From the NCBI GenBank assembly GCA_951406725.2, contig OX597814.1, forward strand, positions 184,388,001 to 184,452,000: a DNA stretch of 64,000 nt, written 5' to 3'. Position 1 is the stretch's first letter. Each line of letters opens with the position of its first letter. This document shows, piece after piece, positions 36,988-45,109 of the stretch. Source of the DNA: Octopus vulgaris (lineage: Eukaryota). The position numbers were made by a program, and so were the translations under genes. Under the pieces are notes generated by a model. It had not been told where the DNA came from and did no database searches. It saw only the letters and a list, made by a program, of their open reading frames with translations.

Positions 36988-37286
36988 AACACACATATAT
37001 ACGACAGGCTTCTTTCAGTTTCAGTCTACCAAATCCACTTTGGTCGGCCCGAGGCTATAGTAGAAGACCCAAAGTGCCACGCAGTGGGTCTGAACCCGGA
37101 ACCATGTGGTGGGTAAGTTGCTACTTACTACACAGCCAGTCCCATATATATATGGGACTGGCTGTGTAGTACGTAGCTTATATATATAAGAGTAATCACA
37201 TAATGCGAAACAAGGTGGTAAAAATAGTACTCGAATACCAGAGGGAGAGTAATATGCTTTATTAAAATGCAGCAAAAATATCACAA

Positions 37287-37330
37287 AAAATGTTACTCAG
37301 AGTTTCACGTTCCCGTTCGTCAGACAGTTT
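37287..37330 (-). ncRNA. Type-I hammerhead ribozyme, canonical core
   Basis: aaactgt-CTGACGA-acg(ggaa)cgt-GAAA-ctc(t)gaGTA-acatttt. Confidence 0.8.
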
Positions 37331-37348
37331 AGTGCAGAATTCTAAACA

Positions 37349-37392
37349 AAACTATCCGACGAACGGGAACGTGAAACTCTGAGTAACAGTTT
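37349..37392 (+). ncRNA. Type-I hammerhead ribozyme, U4C variant
   Basis: aaactat-CCGACGA-acg(ggaa)cgt-GAAA-ctc(t)gaGTA-acagttt. Confidence 0.75.
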
Positions 37393-37422
37393 TTGTGATA
37401 TTTTTGTTGCATTTTAATAAAG

Positions 37423-42872: not shown

Positions 42873-43717
42873 ACTCTCCAATAAACATGAAGAAAATTGC
42901 TAGAAAAATTCACCTATTTTGGCGCAAAATTGAAAAATATTGTAACAAAATGTTCTGCTTTTTTTTTCTTTTGTTATTGGCTTTTTTTCCCGCGAAACTA
43001 AGATCAGACTTTCCGGTGTAATTATTGTAGAAGGTTTGTGATCAGTTGCAATATATATGAACAAGTACATTTCTTATGATTTCCAAAGACTATACGGCTA
43101 TCCTGAGTTTGTGGCTACTTCTGGAGGAAGAGAGAGTTTTATCATACTGGTGGAACAGGGTAGGGAACCCAGTTGTTACAAGTGTGTCATAAGAAGATCT
43201 GGAAACACAGGAGGACTTTCTGTTCAGAAGAGTTAAGAAAACAAGTGAAGAAAAAAGGAACAAAGAATAGCAGTAAGTATAAAAAAGTTAGTTTATAAAG
43301 CGCTGCGGTTCGCAACACAGAGACCAAATGCCGATGACTAAAGCACAGAAGGGGTGACCAATAACGGAAAACAAGGCTGGAGAAGAAATGCCTGTCGCAA
43401 AGTGTGTTTCGTAAAAGATGGAAGTCTATAGCAAGTATGTTGCGAGTGAAAGAACCTGTTTAAACGAGAATATAAAAAGGAGAAAGCAAAGTCTTCAGTG
43501 TGAGTATGTGGTTTATGGGGTCGATCGCGTCCTCCGCTTCATTTTTTTGTAAATCACTCATTCTCATTTAACTGTATATATTTTATAGAAATATTAAATT
43601 TCTAAATATCTCAGAGAGATATAAGCAGTGGTGGAACGATAGAGCAGTTGTATACCGTCAACTTAACGTGACAGTCCCATATTTCTATTTTTGGTGATCA
43701 GTGAATTTACTTCACTG

Positions 43718-43785
<68 letters not shown>

Positions 43786-43787
43786 CG

Positions 43788-44235
43788 TATATTTGCCATT
43801 TGAATATGGCTAACCCCTAAAGGTTGGATGCTACTGTAGTTTGTAGCCCCAGGAGGACACCTCCTCCAGCTGGCTATAGACACACTTTCTGTGCCCTATC
43901 AGTTTTTGCAAAGGGAAGCCATCCTTTCCGTCTTCAACTTATGATACACACGGACTGATATTGAAAAAGTGTAATCGATACTGGAAAAAATATATGTATT
44001 TGTGAAGGGAACCTATTTCTCATCGACAACTATGATTGTCACACGCCGATGACGGGTCAATACCCTGAAACTCGAGTCCGTGTGTATCATAAGTTGTAGA
44101 CGGGAAGGATGGCTTCCCTTTGCAAATACTGATAGGGCACAGAAAGTGTGTCTATAGCCAGCTGGAGGAGGTGTCCTCCTGGGGCTACAAACTACAGTAG
44201 CATCCAACCCTTAGGGGTTAGCCATATTCAAATGG

Positions 44236-44243
<8 letters not shown>
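43788..44243. mobile_element. Inner fold-back element, ~169-bp arms, inserted in (TA)n
   Basis: 43788-43956 / 44075-44243, 4 mismatches by eye. Hammerhead at the spacer/arm junction. Confidence 0.9.
44040..44084 (+). ncRNA. Type-I hammerhead ribozyme, U4C variant
   Basis: cacacg-CCGATGA-c-gggt(caat)accc-t-GAAA-ctcgaGTC-cgtgtg. Palindromic stem III actcgagt. Stem I extends to 44026-44098. Confidence 0.8.
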
Positions 44244-44291
<48 letters not shown>

Positions 44292-44334
44292 TACAAAGTC
44301 TAGACAGGTATCTTCAGCTAGCAGACCATGCTAC

Positions 44335-44377
44335 TCCAGACTGATGACGAGCAAAGACTCAGAAACATGTCTCTGGA
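44335..44377 (+). ncRNA. Type-I hammerhead ribozyme, canonical core
   Basis: tccaga-CTGATGA-c-gag(caaaga)ctc-a-GAAA-catGTC-tctgga. Palindromic stem III acatgt. Confidence 0.85.
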
Positions 44378-45109
44378 CGCAAGCTTAGCTGGATGGGGGT
44401 GCTTGTCTCCCCCTTGTAAACATAAGGACACAGGAAATGTGTCAAGGCCGACAGGAAGCGTTGATACTTCCTAGGGCTAAATAGCGGTGGTGTGATTCCC
44501 TTTATGGGAATGTCACGTTAAGTTGATAGTATACAACTGCTCTGTATATAATTTAATTGTTTGTTTATTCATACGTTTCGTCTCATTCGATACCCTGACC
44601 CTAATGTTTGTTTTGTCTGTCCTCGTATCGTCCCCTAGTTTTCTCAACCTCATGGTTAATAAAGAAATTGACTAAAGCACTGAAGTCTTCTTCCCTTTGT
44701 AAGGGTCGGAAAGAAATGGATGATGTACAGAAGTCGTAAATGAGCAACTGCAGTGTGATAAAAAGAAGAAAACACGAAAAGAAAGAAGTAAAGCCTAACC
44801 AAAGCAAAGACACTAAAAAAGTGGACCATCCCTTCTGAGAATGCATGGAATTCACGCGTCTCTTCCAACAATTATGAAGGACCAATCCTATTGTGTGAAA
44901 AATCAGAAAGAAGAAAGGAAAATATGTTGATTGAGGGAGTGATTGACAATAACCTCAGAGAATAATCTTTTGATAGGTTCTACTTCCGCTTGATGGTTTA
45001 TTTACCTGTCAGTTTGAGCAGGTAGATTACTGTCATGTGCCGTGTTTGGTAATAGGTTTTGCTACTTCTTATCCCTCTATTACGTCGATTATGATGGGAT
45101 ATGATCAGA

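Follow-up and report, generated by a model that had tools for sequence, protein, structure and literature searches.

Nested hammerhead-motif repeats in Octopus vulgaris: retrozyme-like units whose inverted copies pair a short with a long 3′ end

Layout of the nested locus

We analysed a window of 64 000 nt of Octopus vulgaris DNA (assembly GCA_951406725.2, contig OX597814.1, positions 184 388 001 to 184 452 000, forward strand); coordinates below are those of the window. The locus consists of a 352-nt hammerhead-motif repeat that has inserted into the TA run inside a related repeat of ∼354 nt. The nested fold-back structure described in the initial annotation was recovered: the outer inverted repeat (43641–43681 and 44503–44543) matches at 38 of 41 positions and the inner inverted arms (43788–43956 and 44075–44243) at 165 of 169, with TA runs at 43722–43781 and 44239–44288. 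The 41-bp outer repeats are real, but the outer element starts at 43586, not at 43641, and is 55 nt longer than had been described.

With unit positions counted after the predicted cleavage site, the outer element can be read as follows. A 13-bp target site duplication on the left (43573–43585) is followed on the minus strand by the inverted arm (43586–43681, unit +132 to +227), which has the long 3′ start and comprises a 55-nt tail absent from the right end (43586–43640) and the 41 bp common to the right end (43641–43681). The direct arm, on the plus strand, begins with a 5′ part (43682–43721, about +224 to +263) that extends as far as the internal TA run; its remainder (44289–44543) passes through a type I hammerhead motif (44335–44377, plus strand, predicted cut after 44371) to +172, the short 3′ start. 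The target site duplication on the right (44543–44555) is identical to the left one at 12 of 13 positions. In contigs of four out of four public runs position 43585 is joined directly to the letters of 44556 onward, representing an empty outer site, which may be paralogous because the host sequence is itself a repeat. This host (43363–43585, and 44556 onward) is a high-copy repeat starting at ∼43363.

The inner insertion is flanked by (TA)30 on the left (43722–43781) and (AT)25 on the right (44239–44288). Its inverted arm (43782–43956, minus strand) covers unit positions 349 (−3) to +170, a short 3′ start. The direct arm (43973–44243, plus strand) runs from +247 through the inner type I hammerhead motif (44040–44084, plus strand, predicted cut after 44078) to +164 and ends in the TA run, with a short or eroded end. 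A 25-nt jumped fragment (43954–43978, minus strand, unit +219 to +243) joins the two arms via short microhomologies. Since the junction includes a 3-nt microhomology (AGT) in addition to this fragment, the inner arm end can be placed 1–4 nt from the cut; it does lie near the predicted cut, as had been noted, but 1–4 nt 5′ of it and not exactly 4 nt. The internal TA spacer of the outer family has 6 nt in 18 of 27 other copies, with a maximum of 34 nt; therefore, the long TA tracts at this locus likely grew at or after insertion.

Elsewhere in the window, a third fold-back element (37260–37419) adjoins a TA run and has a hammerhead-like motif in each arm (cores CCGACGA and CTGACGA); its relatives were seen at loci L135, L150, L164 and L336. 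An Rfam match to MIR6140 at the same positions reflects the hairpin only. A short near-perfect palindrome with a small TA run at its centre is located at 37126–37171.

Two related families of tandem units

On sequence features, both elements can be characterized as members of related, abundant, non-coding families of 352–355-nt tandem units, i.e. as non-LTR retrozymes. For the inner family 849 exact matches of a 27-mer were counted in the 2.8-Gb genome, and its unit forms a 9-unit tandem array with a period of 352 nt; the outer unit has 353–355 nt, with three hammerheads in locus L199. Inner and outer units align collinearly at about 59% (E-value 6e-21). The longest ATG ORFs of the units, 57 and 51 aa, indicate that they are non-coding, and the folding of the inner unit is far above that of shuffled sequences (z = −5.9). 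A short (within 170–400 nt) non-coding tandem unit with a type I hammerhead motif in each unit was what we found of the features by which non-LTR retrozymes are recognized at sequence level. The ORF with RT and GIY-YIG domains of an autonomous Penelope-like element (PLE) was not seen, as there was no tblastn match in the window and the units are non-coding. A related tandem family with 360-nt units and a hammerhead with a U3-A8 core, about 60% like the inner unit, is present at L151:1240–1790; further relatives, at 60–73%, occur in L312 and L335.

To survey copies of the inner family we used 160 distinct loci taken in coordinate order from the matches of two exact patterns (the first 100 of 849 and the first 100 of 185) and mapped on a natural array. 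Overlapping loci of one insertion were left out, as were L040 (duplicate of L038), L171 and L172 (the same as L005 and L001) and C2:84973080. As best-scoring loci favour long arms, only those of the 30 best-scoring loci that were also in the pattern lists were counted. The outer-family sample had 51 loci drawn from 95 matches plus the window copy. Being drawn by exact-match patterns, the samples lean to younger copies.

Hammerhead motifs

A relaxed scan for type I hammerheads produced exactly two matches in the 64-kb window, with cores at 44046 and 44341, vs 0.13 matches per 64 kb in shuffled windows; both hammerheads of the initial annotation were borne out. The strict scan of the window gave no match: a pair at the base of stem II was obligatory in it, and this base is unpaired in both motifs. 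No hammerhead family was among the Rfam matches listed (150 of 216, and all 14 in a second search).

Stem I has 6 bp in both the inner and the outer motif, stem III is palindromic and the base of stem II is mismatched; the core is CCGAUGA (C4) in the inner motif and CUGAUGA in the outer one, and the C4 core was present in 67 of the 89 inner-family cores matched. Judged by their letters, both hammerheads deviate from the consensus, the inner one being mostly C4 and the base of stem II being unpaired. Across three related families the stems vary in letters while pairing is kept: the third family has the same stems in other letters, with a U3-A8 core. Stem III lengths differ among the aligned hammerheads. 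The palindromic stem III is predicted to pair between two molecules, as a dimer, and self-cleavage of these hammerheads as dimers is putative here.

Target sites and class of the elements

Direct repeats of at least 7 nt were observed at 21 of 41 non-microsatellite sites, vs 70 of 1640 mismatched controls. Of 232 typed ends, 160 directly adjoin (TA)n. The copies have variable 5′ truncation and a fixed 3′ end with an optional tail, together with a head-to-head inverted copy, target duplication and AT-rich or (TA)n targets, all of which are features of Penelope-type insertion. The initial annotation had proposed retrotransposition products of the Penelope type in place of MITEs; tandem units, variable 5′ ends, a one-sided tail, target site duplications and AT-rich targets uphold this proposal, and by these features the elements behave like non-autonomous PLEs.

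Inverted termini and a flanking duplication at the locus are what one would also see for MITEs or fold-back DNA transposons mobilized by a transposase. The copy survey did not produce the fixed matching TIRs and uniform length of such elements. The 3′-outward inverted form is missing in 69 of 160 loci, arms vary in length (median 203 nt) with a maximum of 741 nt, a tail distinguishes the two ends and head-to-tail arrays exist. MITE identity is refuted by this survey, and we leave it practically no probability.

Arm ends and the predicted cleavage site

The initial annotation had suggested that arm length is set by ribozyme cleavage, and had named breakpoints placed at random with respect to the GUC in other copies as evidence to the contrary. 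Random placement is what we observed: 5′ breakpoints are scattered round the 352-nt unit. Among 233 typed arms from the 160 inner-family loci, 12 end within −4 to +6 of the cut, while 9.1 are expected at a flat stopping rate (p = 0.21), and one arm ends exactly at +1 (0.84 expected). Read-through by at least 5 nt was seen in 134 of 141 passes reaching the cut, although it does not show that the RNA was never cut, as a religated circle or an uncut multimer looks identical. Of 77 outer-family arms, 2 end within −5 to +6 of the cut, and the outer arm at the locus ends at +132, 131 nt from its own cut.

If the polymerase ran off the 5′ end of a cleaved RNA, cleavage would determine both arm length and inversion point, and the inner arm end at the locus, 1–4 nt from the cut, would be in line with this model. 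So would three small excesses near the cut, all seen after the fact: at −4 to −1 we counted 7 ends vs 3.2 expected (p = 0.047; rank 19 of 352 four-nt windows); in non-inverted copies, 12 vs 5.0 at −20 to 0 (p = 0.005); in inverted copies, 11 vs 5.9 at +1 to +11 (p = 0.039), the latter two p-values being uncorrected for 54 window-by-subset tests. Pausing of the polymerase in the fold explains these excesses better, as two of the three lie 5′ of the cut, in sequence absent from a cleaved RNA. A weak local excess close to the ribozyme may exist even so. The counts within −4 to +6 and at +1, the read-through and the outer family all speak against the model, and stops cluster more strongly at other positions of the inner unit, namely at +99 (10 vs 3.3) and +295–297 (8 vs 2.5; both uncorrected). 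A GC-rich hairpin is predicted with its 3′ foot at the +99 cluster. As a general rule, cleavage-set arm length is refuted, and we give the model a very small probability. The inner copy of the window stays compatible with cleavage, its near-cut arm end being a coincidence of one copy. The view that the 3′ cleavage product was copied in inverse turned out to be a misreading of direction: each arm has a fixed 3′ site as its start, from where it extends in the direction of the ribozyme.

Two fixed 3′ start sites, one per arm

Terminal arms of the inner family (n = 251) fall into two classes by their 3′ ends: 121 short (+160 to +178, near +170) and 112 long (+208 to +232, near +216), with 18 others. 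The two 3′ ends are 46–55 nt apart, which is the tail length. Among solo copies both ends occur (37 short, 30 long, 2 other). Copies inverted with 3′ ends outward were found in 91 of 160 inner-family loci, and 73 of 76 typed inverted pairs combined a short with a long arm vs 38 expected (p = 1e-18); two were short with short and one long with long. The window's inner copy is one of the two short–short exceptions (170/164), and in 15 of the 91 inverted loci an end belongs to neither class. In the outer family (51 loci) all 17 typed pairs were short with long, 9 further pairs being untyped; the window's outer copy obeys the rule (+172/+227). A similar small hairpin around CTCTGAGA is seen in both tails (43586–43640 and inner unit +190 to +215); judging from its place between the start sites, it is a candidate protein-binding site.

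We believe that the inversions are best explained, and probably so, by twin priming on one RNA, carried out at each element by a dimer of a Penelope-type RT/GIY-YIG enzyme. The ribozyme would act earlier, likely in the release of unit RNAs, and would not set arm length. A PLE dimer would then bind the tail region of one retrozyme RNA, nick both target strands about 8–14 bp apart and prime one cDNA at each of the two fixed sites of the same RNA. Each polymerase would stop at random, which would give the arm length, and the two cDNAs would be joined head to head by microhomology or template jumps; if only one priming survived, a solo copy would result. The stretch is longer than one unit in 52 of 160 inner-family loci, and arms of this length need a template that is a circle or a multimer, as the template RNA may have been.

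The arms of a pair are closely related: they agree at 431 of 438 diagnostic sites vs 254 expected, and arm divergence is 3.0% within loci vs 7.0% between loci (49 loci). Such agreement would also be produced by fold-back or self-priming, in which one cDNA, or an antisense template, copies itself and later asymmetric central deletions scatter the junctions; self-priming of this kind is a published proposal for head-to-head PLE structures (PMC3846280). Two further observations fit with it: paired 5′ ends are no more than 30 nt apart in 21 of 73 pairs vs 13.2 expected (p = 0.01), a weak coupling, and 29 of 76 two-segment junctions overlap by at least 2 nt. Several others do not. In 37 of 57 pairs neither of the arms is contained in its partner, with no overlap in six; of 73 pairs, the short arm reaches further in 38 and the long arm in 33, with 2 ties, and the 5′ ends are separated by more than 30 nt in 52. 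There was no excess of equal-length arms, as if made in lockstep (8 vs 8.4 expected). Furthermore, the short end behaves as a priming site rather than a stop because it is also the 3′ end of the 37 short solo copies, which counts against fold-back. On this evidence we consider a fold-back origin unlikely, if still worth weighing.

Twin priming could also have used two separate RNAs, one per subunit. The two arms are copies of the same region, and on a single RNA this would call for strand displacement; a single active donor would give matching arms as well. Still, only 7 of 438 diagnostic sites disagree even though the family has distinct subfamilies, and the strict combination of short and long is most easily understood with both sites on a single bound RNA; priming on two RNAs seems to us improbable.

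Twin priming on one RNA, the explanation we favour, has its own difficulties. The short–short inner copy of the window and the 15 inverted loci with an end in neither class depart from it. Paired 5′ ends closer than chance would fit some fold-back or coupling, and the agreement of arms could reflect two RNAs of one donor locus or gene conversion. Also, among the PLE loci examined (see below) we found no autonomous partner whose terminal repeat is homologous. An extra fragment, like that of the window's inner copy, was present at 15 of 91 inverted junctions.

The twin priming of L1, attributed to Ostertag and Kazazian in 2001, is said to involve both target strands priming cDNA on one RNA, with an inverted 5′ part as the outcome; the internal site at which the second primer anneals reportedly varies, and there is no overlap between the arms. 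In the octopus copies, in contrast, both starts are fixed, 46–55 nt from each other, and the arms duplicate the same region.

Search for a partner enzyme

The genome has young elements with RT and GIY-YIG domains, including ORFs of 781 and 775 aa, with an RVT_1 score just under the cut-off. Young PLEs likewise end at one of two 3′ sites within (TA)n: of 13 assigned by eye, 10 were short and 3 long, and of 30 in a second count 20 were short, 6 long and 4 not found. None of the 95 PLE loci examined carries the retrozyme unit as its own terminal repeat; homology of the terminal repeat to the unit was seen in none of 35 GIY-YIG loci and in none of 30 loci of a second family. When three PLE proteins were compared by tblastn with 270 loci, one collinear case (L265/L306) came up. 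We rejected it as a partner, since 12 of 13 full-length relatives run on into a 3′ UTR of their own, which makes the case a secondary insertion.

The dominant young PLE (L146:1945–4287, 781 aa) has a Cys motif before GIY-YIG. Upstream of its ORF there is a second open frame of ∼330–390 aa (L146:606–1682) with no Pfam match, and its 456-nt terminal repeat contains an atypical hammerhead-like motif. Retrozyme copies are often located in the TA tract at the 3′ end of autonomous PLE copies (L322, L328, L312 and L073), which suggests shared targets.

Comparison with known systems

Metazoan retrozymes are described as non-coding units of 350–390 nt in mussel and 330/350 nt in axolotl, for which expression, circles and cleavage have been shown (PMC7229834; 10.64898/2026.07.22.740005). 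The octopus elements resemble them, as far as these accounts go (Cervera and de la Pena 2020, PMC7229834; Li, Clavereau and Pollet 2026), in a unit of ∼350 nt with one type I hammerhead each, in forms from monomers to multimers, in being highly self-paired and in the presence of PLEs in the same genome. Even the mismatch at the base of helix II has a counterpart, the axolotl HHR_Amex2, which still cleaves (10.64898/2026.07.22.740005). Unlike metazoan retrozymes as described there, octopus copies have inverted insertions, two fixed 3′ ends and target duplications; the inner core is mostly C4, and it is from sequence that we know these elements.

Insertions of endonuclease-positive PLEs, as presented in Arkhipova 2013 (PMC3846280) and Craig 2021 (PMC8557442), are 5′-truncated partial tandems, often with an adjacent inverted copy and usually with a tail on one end only; their 8–10 bp duplications and microsatellite targets are likewise similar to those of the octopus copies. 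The octopus elements differ from these PLEs in having no ORF and in a tail of 46–55 nt vs 30–40 nt. In these sources the inversions are explained by self-priming or endonuclease resolution, and the formation of PLE tandem and inverted structures is called undefined in PMC8557442. Tail asymmetry is treated qualitatively in these accounts, whereas in the octopus the pairing was counted (73 of 76 and 17 of 17 pairs).

According to the text of Frangieh 2024 (PMC11167929), a purified Penelope protein acts on both strands of AT-rich DNA, which it cuts and extends. The RT of PAc Poseidon, a protein predicted to be a dimer, starts at two internal sites that delimit the tail; hammerhead cleavage is described as dispensable for insertion in vitro, and no RNA ends at the cut were reported from RNA-seq (PMC11167929). 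The octopus families are similar to PAc Poseidon in two 3′ start sites delimiting the tail and in AT-rich targets. PAc Poseidon, unlike the octopus units, is autonomous; no strand difference in start site was seen for it, and inverted products, which we counted in the octopus, are undiscussed in the text of PMC11167929.

Implications

The octopus elements belong to known classes, non-LTR retrozymes and Penelope-type insertions, and the surprising claim of the initial annotation fails. The value of the locus is in the copy statistics, which bear on how PLE inversions are formed and how retrozymes move; it adds two families and a direct test of the cleavage idea. The qualitative asymmetry of the tail was already published; the pairing of one short with one long end is counted here. 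We have not found this counted rule in print; Arkhipova 2006, Evgen'ev and Arkhipova 2005, Lunse 2017 and supplements may hold it. A near-strict rule of short with long, with matching arms, links the in vitro start sites described in PMC11167929 to genomic inversions.

One could speculate that PLE inversions generally, and those of retrozymes particularly, are the work of an asymmetric dimer held on a single RNA, which is probably circular, with one subunit for each start site and target strand; the trailing polymerase would displace the leading cDNA, and the tail would be the spacer between the two active sites. We would give this generalization an even chance of being right. If true, the asymmetric dimer would replace antisense self-priming as the source of head-to-head PLE structures, and it would tie the mobility of retrozymes to PLE enzymes.
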